Sequence record: MH051914
Length of the DNA: 64,000 nucleotides
Source of the DNA: Enterobacteria phage vB_EcoM_IME338
Strand: one strand, 5' to 3'
This document shows, in pieces, positions 5,647-58,095 of this stretch. Both the position numbers and the translations under genes were made by a program. Position 1 is the first letter of the stretch. Every line of letters begins with the position of its first letter. The notes under the pieces are model-generated. The model worked only from the letters and a program-made list of their open reading frames with translations. It was not told the DNA's origin and searched no databases.

Positions 5647-5668
5647 GGCTGCTTCGGCGGCCTTTTTA
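5647..5668. terminator. rho-independent terminator
   Basis: GGCTGC-TTCG-GCGGCC hairpin flanked by A-run and T-run. Confidence 0.6.
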
Positions 5669-5669
5669 T

Positions 5670-5697
5670 TTGTATTTTGTGCAGAGTGCTGTATAAT
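5670..5697 (+). promoter_or_regulatory. sigma70-like promoter
   Basis: TTGTAT-N16-TATAAT upstream of 5729 gene. Confidence 0.5.
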
Positions 5698-9154: not shown

Positions 9155-9940
9155 ATGGGTATTGTAAAAATCATCAATGGGGATATCTTCTCCGCATTTG
9201 ATAAAGGTAAGTTTGATATCATTGGTCACGGTTGCAACTGTATGAATTTAATGGGTGCAGGTATCGCTGACAAGATTTCTAAACTTTACCCAAAAGCATA
9301 TGAAACCGATACAGAAGTTTATCTGTATGCAGGTGGCATAGGTCACAAACCCTGTGAAAATTTACTAGGGAATTTCTCTGTAGCACGTTTAGAACAAGGC
9401 CGTATAGCTAACCTTTACACTCAGCTTAAGACTGGTAAAGATGCCCGATACAGTGCTTTAGAGTCATCTTTGAAACAGCTTAACAGATACTGTGAAGTTA
9501 ATCAGTTGAAGAAGGTTGGGTTACCTATGATTGGTGCAGGTATCGGTGGGCTAGACCCTCAAGCCGTCACAGTTATCATCAATCAGGTGATGAAGAGTGT
9601 AGATGTTTATCTATATGTCTACGAAGGAGAGATGTACCACAAGTTACGCTCAGGTTGGAAGAACTACTGTGAACCAGAATACTTTGCAGGTGTAGTTGTG
9701 TTCACGGATAATGCAGTTACCCTCTTCAGACGAAGAAAAGGTAAGATACATCAAAGTAACCCTCCGGTTGAAAAGATGTCTCTAAGTAACGCTCTAGTTA
9801 CCCACCTGTCGAAGAGCAATCACAGAATTGCAGTAACATTTGGCAGTGATGCAGATACGTATATCTATGCAAGAACTGATGAGGATATCGAGACGGTCTT
9901 CTCATCACCGGAAGTTACCTTCTTAGACGCAAAGAACTAA
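9155..9940 (+). CDS. macro-domain (ADP-ribose-binding/processing) protein
   Basis: N-terminal NGDIF...GHGCNCMNLMGAGIA and later GLPMIGAGIGGL match the macro-domain Gly-rich phosphate-binding loops. Confidence 0.6.
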   Translation: MGIVKIINGDIFSAFDKGKFDIIGHGCNCMNLMGAGIADKISKLYPKAYETDTEVYLYAGGIGHKPCENLLGNFSVARLEQGRIANLYTQLKTGKDARYSALESSLKQLNRYCEVNQLKKVGLPMIGAGIGGLDPQAVTVIINQVMKSVDVYLYVYEGEMYHKLRSGWKNYCEPEYFAGVVVFTDNAVTLFRRRKGKIHQSNPPVEKMSLSNALVTHLSKSNHRIAVTFGSDADTYIYARTDEDIETVFSSPEVTFLDAKN

Positions 9941-9996
9941 GAAACTCTGTAGAATATTCACAATAGACTAAGCCTTTCTTATCTGGTAAATTTTTC

Positions 9997-10215
9997 AGGT
10001 AAGGAGGGCTTTTTCATTTCAGAATTGTGCAGGTATATTTCTATAGAGAAATCTGTAGAGAAAATTTTGAACTCCAAAGAGGAAATTCATTTTCAAACTG
10101 TGCAGGTAATCTCCAAAGAGCTTTTTCATTTTCAAAACGTGCAGAGAAAAATCAGGTCGGGCAAGAAAAATCATTTTAGAATTGTGCAGGTAGGTGGGTG
10201 CAGGTGGGGATGTTG
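9997..10215. repeat. four direct repeats of about 28 bp (TTTTCATTTTCA-AAYTGTGCAGGTA), 40-45 bp apart
   Basis: copies near 10007, 10081, 10119, 10166; ends in GGTGGGTGCAGGTGGGG. Confidence 0.5.
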
Positions 10216-10369
10216 CCATTTCTCACAATGCTACCACATCTGAAAAGAAAAGTCAACAGAAAAATTTGTAGCGGATTGAAAAATAATTCTTGATTGTAGT
10301 TCTGTTTTGTGGTAGCCGCGCGCACCCGTTTCATTACAATTTTTTGCAAAAATATTTTTAAAATTCCTA

Positions 10370-10398
10370 TTGACTCTTTGAGTATGGTTATCTAATAT
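10370..10398 (+). promoter_or_regulatory. sigma70-like promoter for small-gene array
   Basis: TTGACT-N17-TAATAT. Confidence 0.55.
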
Positions 10399-10447
10399 TT
10401 GCATCAGACGGGCAATCAAGCTCACTTCCTAAACTGGAGAATCAGAA

Positions 10448-10630
10448 ATGGCTAAAAAGATTAATGTTGGCGACGAAGTTGTTTTAAAGTTCGAAAAACG
10501 CTACACAAGAATGTCAATTAGTTCTCACAAGGTTTATAATGTTGATGCTATAAACAGCGATGGGACAATCAAGCTAAAAGGACACAAAGAAAGTTTTCCA
10601 AAAAATATGTTTGACAAATGGAAAAAATAA
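10448..10630 (+). CDS. small hypothetical protein (array gene 1)
   Basis: conserved TIR CCTAAACTGGAGAATC-N5-ATG. Confidence 0.5.
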   Translation: MAKKINVGDEVVLKFEKRYTRMSISSHKVYNVDAINSDGTIKLKGHKESFPKNMFDKWKK

Positions 10631-10669
10631 GTTATTCTCTTCCTTGATTCCTAAACTGGAGAATCTAAA

Positions 10670-10876
10670 ATGCTTTACAGCCGTGAATTGATGGATACAA
10701 CCAACGTTAATACAAAGGTAAAACGTTTTTATATGCAAGTGTGTGGCGCATGGCGTAGAATACCAGAAGCTGACTATTGCAACTATGTAGAAACGGCTAT
10801 CAACTCTAGTTGTTACCTTACAAAGAATACAAAGAAACTTATAAAACATACAGCTGTTTACTATTACGATATATAA
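10670..10876 (+). CDS. small hypothetical Cys-containing protein (array gene 2)
   Basis: conserved TIR upstream. Confidence 0.5.
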   Translation: MLYSRELMDTTNVNTKVKRFYMQVCGAWRRIPEADYCNYVETAINSSCYLTKNTKKLIKHTAVYYYDI

Positions 10877-16095: not shown

Positions 16096-16136
16096 ATTAC
16101 TAATCAACGGGGCTAAATAGCCCCAGATACCTGAAC

Positions 16137-16161
16137 AGCCCCTATTTAAAGGGGCTTTTTT
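16137..16161 (+). terminator. rho-independent terminator closing the small-gene array
   Basis: AGCCCC-TATTTAAA-GGGGCT followed by T6. Confidence 0.6.
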
Positions 16162-17880
16162 ACGTCTTATCAAATACCCTTTCCTTTCCTTTCCAGAATC
16201 TATCCCACTGGTTCGATAGAATCTATCTCATACCTTAAAAGCAATAACTCTATAGTCTACTCTATAATCTCTTATCAAATCAACTTAAATATAAGCCCAT
16301 AACCCGAAAGGGAAGGGCAACCATTAATTGGTATTGTTACCAATCCCTAAAACGCTCTATAAAGCTCTATAACAGCCTTATCAACCTAACTTAAGCAATC
16401 ATATTAACCCACTTTAAAAAGCCCTTCCTAGAGCTTCCCAGAGCCTTAAAAGAATCTTATAAGTGTGTGAGCTTTATCATCTCGTTAGCTATCTTAATGG
16501 TATTGTTATCAATCCCTAGTGAATAACTAAACAACCCCTTGATAGTCACTAAAAAGTATGTTATAGGGGTTTAAAAGTTACTTTGAAGTAGCTTAAAAGT
16601 TACGTAAATGCTAGCCCCCTTAACATTTTCTTAACAATTCCTTAACAATCCCTACATAGTTATGCTTTTAAGGCACTTGTTAGCAACTTGTTAGCCCCTT
16701 GTTAAATCTCTGTTACAACCATGTAAAAGTTTTGTAAGAGTCTTTGACATAGCCTTAAAAGCTCCTGTAAAGCCCTATAAAGAGCTATCCATACAGTTGA
16801 GGGGTAGATACTAGGAAGAGGCTTAAAAGAGCTTACAAAGAGCTATAGAGAGCTTTTAAGAGGGCTATTTAAAGGGTCACTAGGGGTTGGTAACAATACC
16901 AATTAAGAAGGAAAGGGAACGATAAGAAAAGAGATAAGTTGTGTTTGTAAACAACCACTGTGACCATGTTAATAGCTTGTTAAAAAGATTAGACACTTGT
17001 TAGGAACTTGTTAATTATCTTAACAAAATAACTCTTAAAAATTAACTAATTGGTATTGTTACCAATCCCTGTTAACTCTTGTCAGTCATCTGTTAAACCT
17101 CTGTAAAGACTATGTATCAACTGTTAAGAAACTGTTACACTCTTGTTAAAACTGTTAAGAAACTGTTAAGACCTCTGAAGAGATGTTAAGAGCTTGAGAG
17201 AGTTGTTAAGAAATTGTTAAGGATATTTTAAAATTTTGCAAAGTACTTGTAAGGGAGCTGTTAAGGGCTACCAAGCAGATATACATCTTCTACAGATATT
17301 TTTGAGTTCCTTCAAAGACCCTAAAAAATGACTTGATAGTCCTATTTTATAAAAATTTTAAAATTCTGAATAATTACCTAGACAGTCTTTTAAAAATACA
17401 GGCATAAACAGGCTTATAAGATACCTTGTTAGTACCGTGTTAGACCTTGTGAGATAAGGTCTGTAAAGATATTCCTGTTAAGTTTGTTAAAACAGTCTAT
17501 ATAGAGGCTTAGTAATACCTAGTGAACACCTATAGAGGGTAACATAGCTGACATAATGGGTTACTGTTAAGTAATACAGATAACCTAGAGATTAAGAGGT
17601 GTATAGGGGCTTCTAAGAGGGTATAGAGAGATGGTTAAGGTGATTGTATAGGTTGTTAAGAATGCTTGTTAGAAGAGTGTTTAGAAGGGCTATACAGAGG
17701 GCTATTAAGACCACTAGATAGTTACTAAGATACTATATAGTACTATATAACTATATATAGAGAGTAAGATTAAGAAGGTTGTTAAGAAGGGTAGATATTT
17801 TATTCACATATGATGGTGACCCAGAGGTTGGGACAACCGATAAAATTTTATAAAAATTATAAATTTCGTAAATTTTACTC
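16162..17880. repeat. ORF-free repeat-rich region (palindromes, iteron-like short repeats)
   Basis: no ORF of 60 aa or more on either strand; 4 copies of palindrome-containing motif GGTATTGTTACCAATCC; many CTTAAAAG and TGTTAAG repeats. Confidence 0.6.
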
Positions 17881-17883
17881 AAT

Positions 17884-17915
17884 AAAAAGCCCCCAATTAA
17901 GGAGGCTCTTAAGAT
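17884..17915 (-). terminator. rho-independent terminator (minus strand)
   Basis: minus-strand hairpin AGCCTCC-TTAATT-GGGGGCT followed by T-run, downstream of 17919-18599. Confidence 0.5.
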
Positions 17916-17918
17916 ATT

Positions 17919-26666: not shown

Positions 26667-26743
26667 CTCTGTTTAGCTCAGCTTGGTAGAGCGTTCCGTT
26701 TGGGGCGGTAAGGCCGGAGGTTCAAGTCCTCCAACAGAGACCA
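26667..26743 (+). tRNA. tRNA-Pro (anticodon TGG)
   Basis: manual cloverleaf: acceptor CTCTGTT/AACAGAG, anticodon loop TTTGGGG, T-arm GGAGG-TTCAAGT-CCTCC, CCA encoded. Confidence 0.75.
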
Positions 26744-26750
26744 AATTAAT

Positions 26751-26828
26751 GTTCCAGTAGACAAAATGGTATAGTCACCACTCTTTCAAAGTGGATATTT
26801 GAGGGTTCAAATCCCTTCTGGAACGCCA
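26751..26828 (+). tRNA. tRNA-Glu (anticodon TTC)
   Basis: acceptor GTTCCAG/CTGGAAC, anticodon arm CCACT-CTTTCAA-AGTGG, CCA encoded. Confidence 0.75.
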
Positions 26829-26835
26829 GTTTTGA

Positions 26836-26908
26836 CAGAAGACCAATTACAGCAAACTTAATCTTATTCATCTGACACGAAATCGGACAAAGAAGAGATT
26901 TGGTCTGG
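26836..26908 (+). ncRNA. Y-RNA-like structured element E1
   Basis: 5' CAGAAGACCAATTACAGCAA ... 3' TTGGTCTGG; terminal helix AGACCAA/TTGGTCT. Confidence 0.4.
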
Positions 26909-26919
26909 TCATTAAGAAT

Positions 26920-26996
26920 TGCGGGTATAGAGAAAGGGCGTCTCACATGTCTCATTAGCATGGTATCGGCAGGTTCGACTCCTGCACCCGCCTCCA
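26920..26996 (+). tRNA. tRNA-Met-like (anticodon CAT), atypical acceptor/D junction
   Basis: D-arm GAGA/TCTC, anticodon arm CATGT-CTCATTA-GCATG, T-arm GCAGG-TTCGACT-CCTGC; acceptor pairs only with a 3-nt connector or 1-72 mismatch. Confidence 0.5.
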
Positions 26997-27002
26997 ATTT
27001 TG

Positions 27003-27062
27003 CAGAAGACCGTATGCAGCAATAAACTACTTTTTGCGGATAAAAGAAAAAACACGGTCTGG
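27003..27062 (+). ncRNA. Y-RNA-like structured element E2
   Basis: 5' CAGAAGACCGTATGCAGCAA ... 3' ACGGTCTGG; helix AGACCGT/ACGGTCT (compensatory vs E1). Confidence 0.4.
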
Positions 27063-27073
27063 CAACCTATTAA

Positions 27074-27147
27074 GGTTAGGAAGCACATGAGGTATGTGCG
27101 GTCGCCTGTTAAGCGAATGGCACAGGGTTCGAATCCCTGACTAACCG
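27074..27147 (+). tRNA. tRNA-Asn (anticodon GTT)
   Basis: D-arm GCAC/GTGC, anticodon loop CTGTTAA, T-arm CAGGG-TTCGAAT-CCCTG. Confidence 0.75.
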
Positions 27148-27159
27148 CAAAATTTAAAT

Positions 27160-27247
27160 GTGTCGTTATCCCGTAGATGGTAGCGGTGGGGACTGTAAAT
27201 CCCTTGTCATTGAGACTCGGTAGGTTCGACTCCTACACGGCACACCA
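27160..27247 (+). tRNA. tRNA-Tyr (anticodon GTA), class II
   Basis: acceptor GTGTCGT/ACGGCAC, anticodon arm GGGGA-CTGTAAA-TCCCT, long variable arm, T-arm GTAGG-TTCGACT-CCTAC, CCA. Confidence 0.75.
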
Positions 27248-27308
27248 ATTTTGAGAGGGCTATTTAGCCCCTCCCTTAAAGGGTTCTTACGAGTATTCTT
27301 TAAAGGAG

Positions 27309-27382
27309 CAGAAGACCAAATACAGCAAGTTATTTAAAATTTCAAGCCAATTTAATTTTGAAAAATTTAAAACTTGGTCTGG
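27309..27382 (+). ncRNA. Y-RNA-like structured element E3
   Basis: 5' CAGAAGACCAAATACAGCAA ... 3' TTGGTCTGG. Confidence 0.4.
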
Positions 27383-27395
27383 CTCAACAAATTTA

Positions 27396-27526
27396 CAGAA
27401 AACCGTTTACAGCAAAACTTAAACAATCTATTTCTCGGTAAAGAAAAGGCGAAGGTTCGATTCCTTCACTCGGCAGATGTCGAGTTGGTGTAATGGTAGC
27501 ACTTAAGATGATAAACAACGGTCTGG
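27396..27526 (+). ncRNA. YrlA-like RNA candidate: terminal helix enclosing a permuted tRNA-like module
   Basis: ends CAGAAAACCGTTTACAGCAA / AACGGTCTGG; internal T-arm GAAGG-TTCGATT-CCTTC, closed acceptor-like hairpin ACTCGGC-AGAT-GTCGAGT, D-arm GTGT-AATGGTA-GCAC. Confidence 0.5.
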
Positions 27527-27529
27527 TAA

Positions 27530-27669
27530 TTATCTTTGTAGATAAGTTATTAAGCTTACCTGTGAGTATGCGACCACAAAGGGTGAAAGGGTAAATTCTA
27601 GATTTAAACCCAACAAGGCACATCGCTACAGACCTTAAGCAAGTCTGGGTAGCTTATCTACAAAGATAA
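27530..27669 (+). ncRNA. structured RNA candidate with perfect 17-bp terminal stem
   Basis: TTATCTTTGTAGATAAG pairs with CTTATCTACAAAGATAA about 105 nt away; inner bulged hairpin CTACAGAC/GTCTGGGTAG. Confidence 0.4.
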
Positions 27670-27675
27670 TTTAAT

Positions 27676-27751
27676 GGAAGTGTAGCAGAATGGTGATGCG
27701 GCAGACTTTTAATCTGACAGGCGATGGGTTCGAATCCCTCCACTTCTACCA
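27676..27751 (+). tRNA. tRNA-Lys (anticodon TTT)
   Basis: acceptor GGAAGTG/CACTTCT, anticodon loop CTTTTAA, T-loop TTCGAAT; T-stem only 3 G-C pairs. Confidence 0.6.
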
Positions 27752-27755
27752 ATAT

Positions 27756-27832
27756 GGTTCAGTCGCAGATAAGGTAATGCAGGGGTCTCATAAGCCCTAT
27801 GAATGTGGGTTCGATTCCCATCTGAACCTCCA
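27756..27832 (+). tRNA. tRNA-Met (anticodon CAT; initiator/elongator/Ile2 not resolved)
   Basis: acceptor GGTTCAG/CTGAACC, anticodon arm GGGGT-CTCATAA-GCCCT, T-arm GTGGG-TTCGATT-CCCAT. Confidence 0.7.
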
Positions 27833-27834
27833 AT

Positions 27835-27910
27835 GCTGTGAAAGCACATATGGATGTGCATTCGGCTGATAACCGAAAGGCAGAAGGTTCGAATCCTTCT
27901 CACAGTACCA
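27835..27910 (+). tRNA. tRNA-Ile (anticodon GAT)
   Basis: canonical: D GCAC/GTGC, anticodon arm TTCGG-CTGATAA-CCGAA, T-arm GAAGG-TTCGAAT-CCTTC, CCA. Confidence 0.85.
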
Positions 27911-27925
27911 ATTTCAATAAAGTTG

Positions 27926-27954
27926 TTGACATTGATGTGTGACTACTTTATAGT
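27926..27954 (+). promoter_or_regulatory. internal sigma70-like promoter within tRNA region
   Basis: TTGACA-N17-TATAGT. Confidence 0.55.
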
Positions 27955-28157
27955 AACCTTAGTTTTCGTTGCGTAGCGTCTATTTTGCAAATCTAAAATA
28001 AATGCAAACGACAATGTTTTTCTGGCAGTAGCTTGATAGGCTAAACACCAGTGAGGTCTTCCAATCCCTCATCAAAGAATTTGGCGTACTCGCCCACGGT
28101 ATGATTAATAAGGTGGGCATCTTTAAGGGCTTTCTAAGAGAGTCTTTAAAGATTAAT

Positions 28158-28234
28158 GCACCCTTAGTTCAACTGGACAGAACAAATGACTTCTAATCAT
28201 TAGGTTACAGGTTCGAATCCTGTAGGGTGTGCCA
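28158..28234 (+). tRNA. tRNA-Arg (anticodon TCT)
   Basis: D GTTC/GAAC, anticodon arm AATGA-CTTCTAA-TCATT, T-arm ACAGG-TTCGAAT-CCTGT, CCA. Confidence 0.8.
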
Positions 28235-28376
28235 AATAGTTAGCAGATTGCTTAGACGACCTTATCGGGTCTCCGTGTAAGGAGGTGGTCTGTATCTCAT
28301 GTTTTCCAGAACATGTAAATAATCTGAGAAGGGGCTTTACAGTGTTGTGAAAATACGGTAAGCTTCGAATTATAGT

Positions 28377-28459
28377 GTGGGACGATGTTAAGACTCTAAG
28401 GCATGAGCAACGGCTTCCAACACCGTTTCAAAGGGGTTCAACTCCTCCGTCCCATGCCA
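28377..28459 (+). tRNA. tRNA-Trp-like (anticodon CCA) with 7-nt insertion between acceptor stem and D-arm
   Basis: acceptor GTGGGAC/GTCCCAT + CCA; D ACTC-TAAGGCAT-GAGC; anticodon arm AACGG(C)-TTCCAAC-(A)CCGTT with 31-39 mismatch; T-loop TTCAACT; 9-nt connector instead of 2. Confidence 0.45.
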
Positions 28460-28472
28460 AAGTCTTATTAGG

Positions 28473-28560
28473 GGTAGGTAGCGGCTAATGGTAGCCAAAC
28501 TGTCTTGAAAACAGTTGCCACTGTAGAGATACGGTGAGGGTTCGACTCCTTTACTTACCG
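28473..28560 (+). tRNA. tRNA-Ser (anticodon TGA), class II
   Basis: acceptor GGTAGGT/ACTTACC, anticodon arm ACTGT-CTTGAAA-ACAGT, variable arm stem CTGTA/TACGG, T-loop TTCGACT. Confidence 0.7.
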
Positions 28561-28817
28561 CCTAATAAGATTTAAAGCCAAGCTTCATTCGGATGTTGCT
28601 TTGGTATCCCTCGTGTATTGTCGTACACCCTGATAAAGCACCTAGTAGGTGTCACGGAGAAGAGATAATATCAAGCTCTCCAAAGGTTCTAGTCACCGGA
28701 TTGAACAAGACTATGCAAAGACCAATTTAGGTCTTTTTAGAGGGCTTCTAAGGTTATTACAGCTTGTTGTGGAACCTTGTTGCTTAGGTTCTTAGAAGTT
28801 CTCTAAAAAGATTTAAT

Positions 28818-28894
28818 GCACCTATAGCCCAACTGGTAGAGGCAGCAGACTTAGAATCTGCTCAGTGTGAGTTCGAATCTCTCTAGGTGTACCA
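28818..28894 (+). tRNA. tRNA with anticodon TAG (Leu by anticodon) but short variable arm
   Basis: acceptor GCACCTA/TAGGTGT, anticodon arm GCAGA-CTTAGAA-TCTGC, T-loop TTCGAAT, A73, CCA. Confidence 0.6.
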
Positions 28895-28901
28895 AATTAA
28901 T

Positions 28902-28977
28902 GCAGGTGTAGCAAAATGGTTATGCGGCTGACTCTTAATCAGTAAGACGATGGGTTCAATTCCCTCCACCTGTACCA
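28902..28977 (+). tRNA. tRNA-Lys (anticodon CTT)
   Basis: paralog of Lys-TTT gene; anticodon loop CTCTTAA; CCA. Confidence 0.6.
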
Positions 28978-28983
28978 AACATT

Positions 28984-29059
28984 GGGGTCATAGTTTATAT
29001 GGTTAAAATTCGAGTTTTGCAAACTTGGGAACTGAGTTCAATTCTCAGTGACTCCACCA
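28984..29059 (+). tRNA. tRNA-Ala (anticodon TGC)
   Basis: acceptor GGGGTCA/TGACTCC with G3-U70 identity pair, anticodon loop TTTGCAA, T-arm CTGAG-TTCAATT-CTCAG, CCA. Confidence 0.8.
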
Positions 29060-29065
29060 ATTAGT

Positions 29066-29140
29066 GCATCCATAGTTTAAACGGGAAAATTACAGTCTTC
29101 CAAACTGAGGTTGAGGGTTCGATTCCCTCTGGATGCTCCA
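29066..29140 (+). tRNA. tRNA-Gly (anticodon TCC)
   Basis: acceptor GCATCCA/TGGATGC, anticodon loop CTTCCAA, T-arm GAGGG-TTCGATT-CCCTC, CCA. Confidence 0.75.
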
Positions 29141-29147
29141 AATTAAT

Positions 29148-29224
29148 GCTGCTTTCGTATAATTGGCTATTACACATCCCTTGTAAGGATGGAAATGCAG
29201 GTTCGAGTCCTGTGAGCAGCACCA
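29148..29224 (+). tRNA. tRNA-Thr (anticodon TGT)
   Basis: anticodon arm CATCC-CTTGTAA-GGATG, T-arm GCAGG-TTCGAGT-CCTGT, CCA. Confidence 0.75.
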
Positions 29225-29227
29225 ATT

Positions 29228-29319
29228 CAGAGGTCAAGTGAAAGACCGCTGGTGTCAACTGAAGACCGTAACAAATTCCACGGAGTTGAGTTAGCGGCAC
29301 AACTTCAGACCTCTTTCAT
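29228..29319 (+). ncRNA. structured element E6 with two GAAGACC-type motifs
   Basis: CAGAGGTC...GACCTCTTTCAT terminal pairing; internal GTGAAAGACCGC and CTGAAGACCGTAACAAA. Confidence 0.3.
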
Positions 29320-29394
29320 ACTCGCTTAGTTTATATGGTAAAACACCACCCTTACAAGATGAAGAAAAAGGTTCAAGTCCTTTAGTGAGTACCA
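29320..29394 (+). tRNA. tRNA-Val-like (anticodon TAC) with weak anticodon stem; possible pseudo-tRNA
   Basis: good acceptor, D-arm GTTT/AAAC, T-arm AAAGG-TTCAAGT-CCTTT; anticodon loop CTTACAA but stem CCACC/GATGA has 3 of 5 pairs. Confidence 0.45.
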
Positions 29395-29395
29395 T

Positions 29396-29474
29396 GTTCC
29401 AGTATCCCAATTGGCAGAGAGGCCAGACTTAAAATCTGTGTTATGTATCGGTTCGAATCCGATATGGAGTACCA
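29396..29474 (+). tRNA. tRNA-Leu-like (anticodon TAA), atypical 5' half
   Basis: T-arm ATCGG-TTCGAAT-CCGAT, anticodon loop CTTAAAA, acceptor GTTCCAG/ATGGAGT with two G-U pairs; D-arm pairing ambiguous. Confidence 0.45.
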
Positions 29475-29479
29475 AATTT

Positions 29480-29555
29480 AGCGGTATAGCATAACTGGCA
29501 ATGCAACAGTCTCTGAAGCTGTCTTATTAAGGTTCAAATCCTTATGCCGCTGCCA
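29480..29555 (+). tRNA. tRNA-Gln (anticodon CTG)
   Basis: D GCAT/ATGC, anticodon arm ACAGT-CTCTGAA-GCTGT, T-arm TAAGG-TTCAAAT-CCTTA, CCA. Confidence 0.75.
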
Positions 29556-29586
29556 CTTCTAAGGATTCTTACGAGAGTCCTTAAAT

Positions 29587-29662
29587 GTGGCCTTATCATA
29601 AATGGTAATAACCCATGCTGTGAACATGGTCTATACGGGTTCAAATCCCGTAGGTCACCCCA
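29587..29662 (+). tRNA. tRNA-His (anticodon GTG)
   Basis: anticodon arm CCATG-CTGTGAA-CATGG, T-arm ACGGG-TTCAAAT-CCCGT, C73, CCA; no encoded G-1. Confidence 0.7.
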
Positions 29663-29667
29663 ATTTA

Positions 29668-29744
29668 TAGTCCAAGTAGCTTATATGGTTAAAGCGCGTG
29701 TCTGAAAAACATGAGAAGAGGGTTCAAATCCCACTGGACTACCA
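29668..29744 (+). tRNA. tRNA-Phe-like (anticodon GAA), 4-nt acceptor/D connector
   Basis: perfect acceptor TAGTCCA/TGGACTA, D GCTT/AAGC, anticodon arm CGTGT-CTGAAAA-ACATG, T-loop TTCAAAT. Confidence 0.55.
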
Positions 29745-29760
29745 ATTTCAAAGGTGCTTA

Positions 29761-30495
29761 ATGAAAGAGATGACAGAACAAGGTAAGGAGATTTTTAATC
29801 TCTTAAAAACCGGTAGAGGGTTTTCTAATCCCCTTATTACTGGTGCAGCAGTTCTCGGTGGAACCGTAGCTGCCTCTACATCACTTATAAGCTCTATTAG
29901 CTCTGTAACAGACCCTACAATAAAGGATAAACTTGTTGCTGCTGGACTGACAACAGTTCTGCTTAACAGCTTTACAACGAGCCTGACAAGCACTACATCA
30001 ACCACTAAGACATTGACAGACTACGGTCAAAAGTCTATTGATGAGTTTTCATCACGTATGCAGGTAGCAAAAGGCTATTCTAATGTTATGGGTGCAGCAG
30101 GAGAGCAAGTTGGTTGTACACCATTTAGTGGTATTATGGGTGTTGCTACAGAGTATGGTCAAAAAGCTATTGACACAATTAACAGTGCACTAGATGGTGT
30201 TAATGATGTATTAAGCGACTTACAAGATGCTATTGATAAAGGTCTTGATACTATTTCTGATTTAGCTAACCAAGCTGTTAGCAAGATTAATGAAGGTATC
30301 TCAAAGATTACAGCTTATGCAGATGAAGTTGTGCAGATGATTGAAGAAGAAGCTGCCCTTATTGCAGAGTACCTTAAAACGAATATCAATGGGTTCTTAG
30401 CAGGTATCTTACCAGACTGGTTTGACGATGCTTGTAAAACTGGTGTAATTGATACTATTGCAACACCAGAAATGAAGAACGCATTACAGAAATAA
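29761..30495 (+). CDS. hypothetical Ser/Thr/Ala-rich protein embedded in tRNA array
   Basis: start reset to ATG 29761 with AAAGGTG RBS; track start 29698 would overlap tRNA-Phe-like gene. Confidence 0.5.
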   Translation: MKEMTEQGKEIFNLLKTGRGFSNPLITGAAVLGGTVAASTSLISSISSVTDPTIKDKLVAAGLTTVLLNSFTTSLTSTTSTTKTLTDYGQKSIDEFSSRMQVAKGYSNVMGAAGEQVGCTPFSGIMGVATEYGQKAIDTINSALDGVNDVLSDLQDAIDKGLDTISDLANQAVSKINEGISKITAYADEVVQMIEEEAALIAEYLKTNINGFLAGILPDWFDDACKTGVIDTIATPEMKNALQK

Positions 30496-30496
30496 T

Positions 30497-30589
30497 GGAA
30501 GATTAACCCTAAAAGGTAAGGGAGCAGTTTGCTAAACTGCCAGTAGCTGAGAAATCGGTGTACCAGTTCAAGTCTGGTATCTTCCTCCA
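30497..30589 (+). tRNA. tRNA-Ser (anticodon GCT), class II
   Basis: acceptor GGAAGAT/ATCTTCC, anticodon arm GCAGT-TTGCTAA-ACTGC, long variable arm, T-arm ACCAG-TTCAAGT-CTGGT, CCA. Confidence 0.75.
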
Positions 30590-30593
30590 ATTT

Positions 30594-30669
30594 GAATCCG
30601 TGACAGAAATGGATATGTGCCTGTCTGCAAAACAGGTTTATAAGGGTTCGAGTCCCTTCGGATTCTCCA
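30594..30669 (+). tRNA. tRNA-Cys (anticodon GCA)
   Basis: acceptor GAATCCG/CGGATTC, anticodon arm CCTGT-CTGCAAA-ACAGG, T-arm AAGGG-TTCGAGT-CCCTT, CCA. Confidence 0.8.
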
Positions 30670-57765: not shown

Positions 57766-58095
57766 TTAATCTGCCAGCCTTAAATTAAAATTAACACCAA
57801 ATTTTTCACATACTTCCAACATAAACTCCAGAGAGACATTACCAGTGAGGTTGATTATGTTGGATACGCGAGCCTGAGATATACCACAAATTTTAGCAAC
57901 TTGCTCTTGAGAAAGACCTCTGGATTTAATCTCTCTCTTAAAACGATGTGCAACGAAGTCTCTCATTTCGTCTACATCCATCGGACAAATATAACTCTCC
58001 ATTTCAGCTTCTCTGTCAGCCTCCCAATCATCTTGTGGAGCATAAGGGTCAAAAACCTCATTCATCTTTCTTCTTCCGTTTACGTGAAGTGTCAA
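57766..58095 (-). CDS. HTH (XRE-like) DNA-binding protein
   Basis: helix-turn-helix LSQEQVAKICGISQARVSNI. Confidence 0.55.
   Translation of the reverse strand: MTLHVNGRRKMNEVFDPYAPQDDWEADREAEMESYICPMDVDEMRDFVAHRFKREIKSRGLSQEQVAKICGISQARVSNIINLTGNVSLEFMLEVCEKFGVNFNLRLAD

Follow-up and report, generated by a model that had tools for sequence, protein, structure and literature searches.

A conserved array of asymmetric direct repeats in a non-coding gap of Felix O1-like phages

Introduction

Felix O1-like phages are widely used for Salmonella and E. coli typing, for biocontrol and in therapy. Here we describe an array of four short direct repeats that lies at the start of a non-coding gap in a 64,000-nucleotide stretch of Enterobacteria phage vB_EcoM_IME338 (MH051914); this whole stretch, at its full length, is referred to below as the window. 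The DNA is that of a Felixounavirus: 252 phage records match the 2.5 kb around the array at 90-95 % identity, and nearly all of them are Felix O1-like myophages belonging to this genus. An initial annotation, made from the letters of the window alone, had pointed to the repeats and read them as a regularly spaced operator or activator-binding array.

The array is real and strongly conserved, and apparently undescribed. No description of it was found in the literature searched, and the genome paper of Felix O1, which lists only exact repeats of at least 24 bp, does not mention it and gives the temporal control of transcription as unknown (PMC3185647). It is the most conspicuous unique and subfamily-wide non-coding element near the boundary between the replication and metabolism unit and the terminal early genes, and it offers a short, precisely defined target that bears on both the origin of replication and the temporal control of genes in Felix O1-like phages. 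The ligand of the array, once identified, would probably point to a system of origin recognition, a switch in timing or a checkpoint for entry. For phage engineering there is a further consequence: the seemingly 'empty' 500-bp gap should not count as a neutral insertion site.

A repeat array fused to a terminator

The gene map was taken from garuso, a complete close relative (85.8 kb). A transcription unit of about 30 kb on the + strand, devoted to replication, nucleotide metabolism and lysis, starts at the primase/helicase region and takes in the ribonucleotide reductases, NAMPT, rIIA/rIIB, a lysin-like gene, polynucleotide kinase and the spanins. Its last member is a macro-domain ('phosphatase') gene (9155..9940, +), an open reading frame (ORF) of 261 aa with a match to Pfam Macro (PF01661, E 1.2e-7), and the unit is closed by a terminator just before the array. 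This terminator, recovered by a terminator scan at 9970..10011 (+), is strong and intrinsic, with a hairpin of 17 pairs and a T-tail that continues into the first repeat, whose T-rich half it supplies; the hairpin is also present in Felix O1, where its counterpart is terminator t13 (dG -21.8 kcal/mol; PMC3185647). The non-coding gap extends over 507 bp (9941-10447), with the array at its start, and beyond it some 20 small genes follow on the + strand as far as 16095.

All four units of the array lie on the + strand. Unit 1 (GGGCTTTTTCATTTCAGAATTGTGCAGGTA, 10006..10035) is fused to the T-tail of the terminator; unit 2 (GAGGAAATTCATTTTCAAACTGTGCAGGTA) occupies 10079..10108, unit 3 (GAGCTTTTTCATTTTCAAAACGTGCAGAGA, 10118..10147) carries a CGTGCA variant that is common to the second unit of Kolesnikvirus, and unit 4 (AAGAAAAATCATTTTAGAATTGTGCAGGTA) occupies 10163..10192. 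Their shared core, TCATTTNNNANNNGTGCA, starts at 10014, 10087, 10126 and 10171. Each unit is laid out as R-R-G N W4, TCATTT(T), about 7 looser bases, GTGCA and GGTA; its core has 18-20 bp, and from about 8 bp before TCATTT through the GGTA after GTGCA it measures some 28 bp with its flanks, so that the length first annotated was about right. The two halves, TCATTT(T) and GTGCA, stand about 12 bp apart from centre to centre, a distance that would place both on one face of the helix. Over 32 nt the units are 63-72 % identical to one another, and the spacers are variable. The spacing itself departs from the 40-45 bp regularity that had been claimed: starts are separated by 73/39/45 bp in the window, and distances of 37, 39, 41, 43, 45 and 73-77 bp occur in relatives.

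That four direct repeats are present is borne out well beyond chance. A degenerate 19-mer, TCATTTNNRAANYGTGCAG, has exactly four zero-mismatch matches in the 64-kb window, all within the array and all on the + strand, while elsewhere in the window it yields only four matches with 3 mismatches, which is the background level of shuffles; a repeat finder recovers the same repeat family. A position weight matrix was built from 32 units of 8 phages, among which GTGCA and TCATTT are essentially invariant. On both strands of the complete 85.8-kb garuso genome the matrix gives the array units 28-32 bits and the next-best site 10.9 bits (shuffled genomes hold 0.6 matches at >=9 bits), and the unit pattern with at most one mismatch occurs in that genome only at the four array positions.

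Two further repeats were noted nearby. Within the 73-bp spacer between copies 1 and 2, at 10040-10063, there is a tandem duplication in perfect register (TCTATAGAGAAA / TCTGTAGAGAAA). Exact GTGCAGGTA 9-mers occur at 9255-9263 and 9534-9542, inside the macro gene; since both encode Gly-Ala-Gly-Ile (GAGI) loops, coding accounts for them and they do not count as further units of the array.

Conservation across the Ounavirinae

An array of three or four units, in the same orientation and directly after the terminator of the macro gene, was found in all four genera of the Ounavirinae: in Felixounavirus (Felix O1, XTG1, garuso), Suspvirus (phiSUSP1, mistaenkt), Mooglevirus (Sf13, HP1) and Kolesnikvirus (phiEa21-4, SPARTY, PMBT37, Coenus). 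The initial annotation had named conservation in relatives as a check on the repeats, and this check came out in their favour. The macro-domain gene is the direct upstream neighbour of the array in each of the four genera; only the N-terminal ~153 aa of its product are conserved in Kolesnikvirus. A scan of IMG/VR for a two-copy pattern yielded 26 contigs, which range from 51-90 kb and of which 22 measure 84-90 kb; each has an array with the same spacing, 3 or 4 units of which satisfy a 1-mismatch filter.

What is kept within these arrays is the unit. In an alignment of eight genomes the invariant blocks are exactly TTTTTCATTT and GTGCA. Among 25 distinct Felix-, Susp- and Moogle-type sequences the mean pairwise identity falls from 0.92 in the unit cores to 0.82 in the spacers, and the final 36 bp of the macro gene reach 0.78. 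Spacing differs by lineage, at 73-77/39-41/43-45 bp versus 37/37/39 bp in Kolesnikvirus, the individual patterns in relatives being 75/41/45, 77/39/45, 73/39/43 and 37/37/39 bp.

Natural variants are telling in this regard. Phages phiWec172, BPS17L1 and VpaE1_ev035 (the last with an internal duplication in a C-rich tract) have another 3' end of the macro gene, another terminator hairpin and three units only, spaced 75/45 bp: a unit fused to the T-tail is followed by the equivalents of copies 3 and 4, and copy 2 is replaced by unrelated sequence. Three units are therefore viable. Because the junction of terminator tail and unit is kept where the hairpin has been swapped, the junction is, to judge from these sequences, under selection.

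These comparisons bear directly on the suspicion that the array is evolutionary debris, a stack of terminator-tail and promoter remnants left after the loss of small genes and without present function. The T-rich half of the unit, (G/C)CTTTTTCATTT, is indeed the usual terminator tail of the phage (t2, t5, t13, t35; PMC3185647), copy number varies between 3 and 4, and a solitary unit near rIIB, described below, belongs to a real terminator-promoter junction. However, the cores have been preserved in all four genera as the spacers and adjoining coding DNA diverged, GTGCA and TCATTT hardly vary in the 32 units, and the array persists in phages whose flanking terminator and macro-gene end have been replaced. 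We regard debris as very unlikely.

Rather, the array comprises, with a probability that we would put at roughly three in four, sites for a sequence-specific DNA-binding protein, arranged in the manner of iterons. An asymmetric bipartite unit, present in direct copies at a single locus, points to iteron-like protein-binding sites, and such units in direct orientation are typical of sites bound by monomers, iterons among them. Further support comes from the non-coding nature of the array, its uniqueness in the genome, the greater constraint on cores than on spacers and its retention in four genera. The array would thus be a non-coding, cis-acting DNA element of 3-4 direct copies of an asymmetric two-part site, each copy probably bound by one molecule of a candidate DNA-binding protein of phage or host origin.

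Coding, RNA and other readings

The possibility that the repeats belong to a protein-coding gene was rejected. Which frame is open, and on which strand, differs between genera, and Coenus has no frame of at least 45 aa; moreover, indels between units are not multiples of 3 (73 vs 75; 39 vs 41 vs 37). Stop-free frames of 58-96 aa do exist on both strands in the window, and hypothetical proteins are annotated in some relatives (Felix O1 ORF31-34, Sf13 gp58, mistaenkt_18). Yet one DNA unit is read in different frames and most records annotate nothing here, and we give next to no credence to a small gene with internal repeats. The ORFs annotated over the array in several records are probably spurious.

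A role at the level of RNA is suggested by a likeness to type III antitoxin and pseudo-ToxI arrays, which share with the present array a period of about 36-45 nt, a small number of copies and a home in intergenic regions of phages. The 37-45 nt period and the 3-4 copies recall the ToxI, CptI and TenpI arrays, and pseudo-ToxI arrays are known from phages (PMC3475682, PMC3401426); the repeats might accordingly act as an antitoxin decoy, as a protein-sponge RNA or as an antisense RNA, and a promoter-like site faces the array both in the window and in Kolesnikvirus. Against this, the units are imperfect rather than near-identical head-to-tail copies, their spacers vary in length and sequence, and neither a pseudoknot, a toxin gene, a host counterpart nor a dedicated promoter was found; no conserved promoter drives either strand. 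No ToxN-like neighbour was found in the phage by Pfam search, and no enterobacterial locus came up when 185,579 representative bacterial genomes were scanned for a two-copy pattern, a scan that may have missed plasmid-borne systems.

Nor does the array have the marks of a structured RNA. In Rfam 15 nothing came near a gathering score, with E values up to 10 admitted. The fold of the minus strand is no more stable than in shuffled sequence (z -0.09), and the z of -3.6 on the + strand arises because the terminator hairpin dominates the fold. RNAalifold produced weak consensus folds and no supporting covariation on either strand: zero compensatory pairs on the + strand and, on the minus strand, a single one, at a pair broken in another sequence and with a positive covariation term. 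A structured non-coding RNA or member of a known RNA family was rejected as unsupported on these grounds (Rfam, folding, covariation), and we hold an RNA role of any kind to be improbable.

Several other candidates were set aside. A CRISPR-like array (clustered regularly interspaced short palindromic repeats) does not fit, the spacers being too short and the array lacking any Rfam CRISPR-DR match. A general promoter element of the middle or late box kind was rejected because the motif is found nowhere else in the complete garuso genome. An array of sigma-70 promoters was likewise rejected: a -10-like hexamer stands at a suitable distance in copy 1 only, and it is not conserved. Sites for host factors were sought by eye (DnaA, IHF, CRP, Fis, LexA, sigma-54, UP element), and only a likeness to the DnaA box in Kolesnikvirus was seen: the units of phiEa21-4 (1502-1640) end in TGTGCATAG or CGTGCATAA, which agree at 8/9 positions with the DnaA-box complement TGTGNATAA, whereas Felix-type units (TGTGCAGGT) agree at only 6/9.

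Transcription signals around the array

The promoter of the terminal small-gene block, of sigma-70 type, was found by promoter scan at 10370..10398 (+) as TTGACT-17-TAATAT. All eight aligned phages share its TTGAC without change, and equivalent promoters were found in relatives; from the end of copy 4 to the -35 there are 177 bp. The initial annotation had placed a further promoter, TTTCAT-N16-TATATT, in the first repeat. Here we find only a weak match, TTTTCA-N17-TATATT (10011-10039, 9/12), which is not conserved: in relatives the -10 hexamer reads TAGAGT, TGAAAT, TGCAAT, TAAAAG, TATCTG or GGGACT. A third, promoter-like site faces the array from downstream (TTGACT-17-TAGCAT with an upstream TG, 10228..10256, minus strand); picked up by the promoter scan of the window, it is not robustly shared. 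Kolesnikvirus has a different site facing the array, TTGACG-18-TATACT, and in phages that carry the C-rich allele described next no array-facing promoter passes the scanner. Inside the array itself, minus-strand promoter matches are found in Kolesnikvirus, where they depend on the shorter spacing, and are absent elsewhere.

Immediately after copy 4 there is a variable segment of 59 bp (10189..10247). The initial annotation had the repeats end in GGTGGGTGCAGGTGGGG, and this tail is present on the + strand at 10193-10209, but it forms part of just one of two unrelated alleles that occupy the position. The window has the G-rich allele, which also holds an extra GTGCAGGT half-unit; the C-rich allele is carried by Felix O1 and by Susp- and Moogle-type phages. 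Tabulated over 33 loci, each allele is 59 bp long in Felixounavirus, and the C-rich allele measures 53-55 bp in Susp- and Moogle-type phages. The segment is the least conserved part of the gap (mean pairwise identity 0.60), and the equal length of its two unrelated alleles suggests a constraint on spacing after copy 4. An R-loop logic linking the -10 hexamer of copy 1 to the G-rich or C-rich allele after copy 4 was rejected, there being no correlation between the two.

Only one other site in the window resembles the unit. It is a solitary, degenerate copy, TTATTTGTATTTTGTGCAG (5666..5684, +), situated directly after the T-tail of another terminator hairpin, GGCTGCTTCGGCGGCC, which follows rIIB (5647-5697 region). 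This solitary unit overlaps the -35 and the spacer of a promoter, TTGTAT-16-TATAAT (5670-5697). In four Moogle- and Susp-like contigs (L017, L021, L033, L041) it has at most one mismatch and the promoter reads TTGAAA-16-TATAAT; its score is just 9 bits in Felix-type phages, and Kolesnikvirus lacks it.

These signals raise the possibility that the units mark a boundary of transcription. A regulator bound to the units past t13 would insulate the terminal early-gene block from the long unit upstream, or act as a roadblock between them; alternatively, with the units as operators, it would repress or activate the weak promoter of copy 1, the facing antisense promoter or, by looping, the block promoter. 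The array does stand between a terminator and the first promoter of the block, and copy 1 stays fused to the T-tail even where the hairpin has been swapped. Outside the array the solitary unit is the one unit-like site of Felix-, Susp- and Moogle-type phages; it again follows a terminator tail and takes an operator-like position, overlapping a good sigma-70 promoter at the -35 and the spacer. Flexible spacing and 3-4 copies would suit sites that are bound independently, and the temporal control of transcription in Felix O1 has yet to be explained (PMC3185647). The phage also encodes a Cro/C1-type helix-turn-helix (HTH) protein of 99 aa (57766-58065, minus strand; Pfam HTH_3, E 4e-11), within a block of thymidylate synthase, DHFR and ligase genes; it is a candidate phage transcription regulator whose link to the motif is not demonstrable.

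Multi-site operators of phage regulators offer a natural comparison, examples being the p4 sites of phi29 and the direct repeats bound by P2 Cox and 186 Apl. As in those systems, there are between three and seven close sites between transcription units, and in some genera an extra unit overlaps the -35 of a promoter. In contrast to those systems, none of the four units touches a conserved promoter; with 177 bp between the end of copy 4 and the main one, the sites neither overlap it nor lie within about 100 bp upstream. The promoter of copy 1 is weak and not conserved, the antisense promoter is not common to all alleles, the other early promoters of the block are without the motif, and the solitary unit is degenerate in Felix-type phages and missing from Kolesnikvirus. 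Dimers of Cro/C1-type HTH proteins, moreover, usually bind palindromes and not asymmetric direct repeats.

On balance we judge a boundary or operator role possible, if doubtful, and place it second among the roles considered. As to the initial annotation, its idea of a binding array is supported as far as protein-binding sites are concerned; direct control of the downstream genes is not, the promoter being 177 bp away, which is far for a classical operator or activator. Given this distance, the irregular spacing, the weakness of the copy-1 promoter and the absence of a regulator that can be named, control of downstream genes is possible only as one of several comparably likely roles. Our search found no Felixounavirus transcriptome, and the genome-wide knockout study that includes Bas63 gives no intergenic scores for that phage.

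A possible origin of replication

A critical issue is the role that a protein bound to the array might play. The role that we favour, tentatively and as a possibility rather than an expectation, is that of a nucleoprotein complex of the kind formed at replication origins. Repeats loaded with protein, lying beside a strongly transcribed and A/T-rich promoter region (10341-10400), would mark the place at which the replisome starts. The replisome in question would be T7-like, with a family A polymerase and a gp4-like primase-helicase: a T7-type polymerase and primase/helicase are encoded by Felix O1, for which an origin has not been described (PMC3185647).

The context is compatible with an origin. 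Four units at one unique locus agree with iteron origins, which have three or more direct repeats of about 17-22 bp, in repeat number and length, and a conserved strong promoter, together with the least stable DNA of the gap, lies about 150-180 bp from the array; in the duplex-stability profile this A/T-rich minimum falls at 10341-10400 and coincides with the region upstream of the block promoter. Like the iteron origins of lambda (lambda ori), of plasmids F, P1 and R6K and of T4 (the 12-nt iterons of oriE), the array repeats a short asymmetric site in direct orientation, at a single, unique non-coding locus. The parallel with T4 oriE goes further. The iterons of oriE are found at syntenic positions in relatives, and the origin depends on an early promoter and lies beside small early genes (PMC3016281); the present array, too, is syntenic in related phages and adjoins an early promoter and small early genes.

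Nonetheless a number of observations weigh against an origin. The spacing of 37-77 bp is irregular and variable, unlike the even ~11-23 bp of iteron origins; it is not helically phased and drifts in 2-bp steps (37/37/39; 39-41; 43-45; 73-77), which a rigid, helically phased initiator complex would not tolerate. Also unlike iteron origins, the array appears to have no adjacent unwinding element and no neighbouring initiator gene: the duplex-stability profile shows an array of average stability with no such element inside or directly beside it and the least stable DNA about 150 bp from copy 4, and Pfam finds a macro domain upstream and nothing DNA-binding downstream, remote homology not having been searched exhaustively. 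The downstream neighbours differ between genera, and there are viable phages with just three units. Copy 1 and the solitary unit at 5666 are both fused to terminator T-tails, a hint at a link to transcription rather than replication. GC skew on the + strand has its higher value on the left side of the array, opposite to the effect of a bidirectional origin, though it tracks transcription only and is uninformative on the origin. The iterons of T4 oriE have themselves never been tied to origin activity (PMC3016281), and in the literature searched no replication mapping is reported for Felix O1-like phages.

The genome end and DNA entry

The position of the array relative to the end of the genome merits separate consideration. 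In the Hafnia phage SPARTY a direct terminal repeat (DTR) of 439 bp, defined by PhageTerm, exact at both ends of the record and rich in TCTTAACA, aligns to 17122-17243 of the window; 9 of the window's 20 TCTTAACA copies lie at 16629-17787. The terminal-repeat region thus falls inside a 1.8-kb non-coding gap (16096-17918), where gene blocks on the + and - strands converge. The location of the SPARTY DTR and of the TCTTAACA cluster places the physical end of the genome inside the window and, with the terminal repeat at ~17.1-17.7 kb, the array lies about 7 kb, or ~8 % of the genome, from that end. Terminal repeats of Felix O1-like phages are short and exact; that of UAB_Phi87, determined experimentally, is 608 bp.

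The array itself is neither a terminal repeat nor a pac site, since the SPARTY DTR maps ~7 kb away from it. It resembles the TCTTAACA cluster of phages with a DTR in being made of clustered, short, non-coding direct repeats in the same genome, and differs from that cluster in motif and, by ~7 kb, in position. In Erwinia phage BoyaciRG1 (OR125561.1) an exact duplication of 1232 bp at both ends of the record begins within the macro gene and takes in the array as well as the gene after it; because it lies off the DTR as mapped from SPARTY, it is probably an assembly overlap and not a true terminal repeat.

At such a position the array could act as a checkpoint for the entry of DNA, in the manner of the injection stop signal (iss) of T5: transfer would pause once the terminal early-gene block (~7 kb) and its first promoter are inside the cell, and resume when early proteins have been made. 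The array sits exactly at the inner edge of the small-gene block, and many GenBank records put it 6.5-8 kb from the end of the record. The T5 iss is a cis-acting, highly conserved set of non-coding repeats 7.9 % from the genome end, above neighbouring ORFs in conservation (10.1101/866236). The array shares with it the conserved non-coding repeats at ~8 % from the end, the inner edge of terminal small early genes and a conservation exceeding that of neighbouring ORFs. The 8/9 match of Kolesnikvirus units to the DnaA-box complement adds to the likeness, DnaA boxes being the element proposed for the T5 iss.

The architecture, on the other hand, is different. The T5 iss lies inside a terminal repeat of 10 kb and combines inverted repeats and palindromes with DnaA boxes in pairs; the present array consists of 3-4 simple direct repeats, in genomes whose terminal repeat has just 0.4-0.6 kb, and Felix-type units match the DnaA box at only 6/9 positions. 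The other end of the genome has a similar small-gene block without such an array, and two-step transfer is not reported for Felix O1-like phages in the literature searched. We therefore consider an entry checkpoint unlikely, ranking it ahead of an RNA role and well behind the two roles discussed above. Were it true, two-step DNA delivery would extend beyond T5-like siphophages to a subfamily of myophages with short terminal repeats. Iteron-like binding of a protein, with an origin as its favoured purpose, remains our preferred account; such probability as remains goes to RNA-level roles, neutral debris and functions not thought of.

Other features of the window

Within the gap, a block of highly conserved non-coding DNA, AAAAGTCAACAGAAAAATTTGTAGCGGATTGAAAAATAATTCTTGATT, occupies 10248..10300, directly after the variable segment; its per-column conservation is mostly 0.9-1.0 among the 25 distinct sequences. 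The variable segment has peculiarities of its own. The C-rich allele reads GGGGGGAGGGGGAGTAAGAGGGGGAGAGGGG on the minus strand and is G-quadruplex-like, and the G-rich allele holds GCAGGTGG at 10200-10207, one mismatch from the E. coli Chi site GCTGGTGG. The orientation of this Chi-like octamer is that of a Chi active for RecBCD entering from the nearby genome end; this is possibly coincidence.

At the downstream edge of the gap a 25-nt translation-initiation leader, TTCCTAAACTGGAGAATC(A/T)(G/A)AAATG, is found at 10426-10450 and again at 10648-10672, before two consecutive small genes. Felix-, Susp- and Moogle-type phages also keep CCTAAACTGGAGA ahead of the first gene downstream. Further along the window, 22 transfer RNA genes are clustered at 26667-30669 on the + strand, upstream of the terminase and the structural module.

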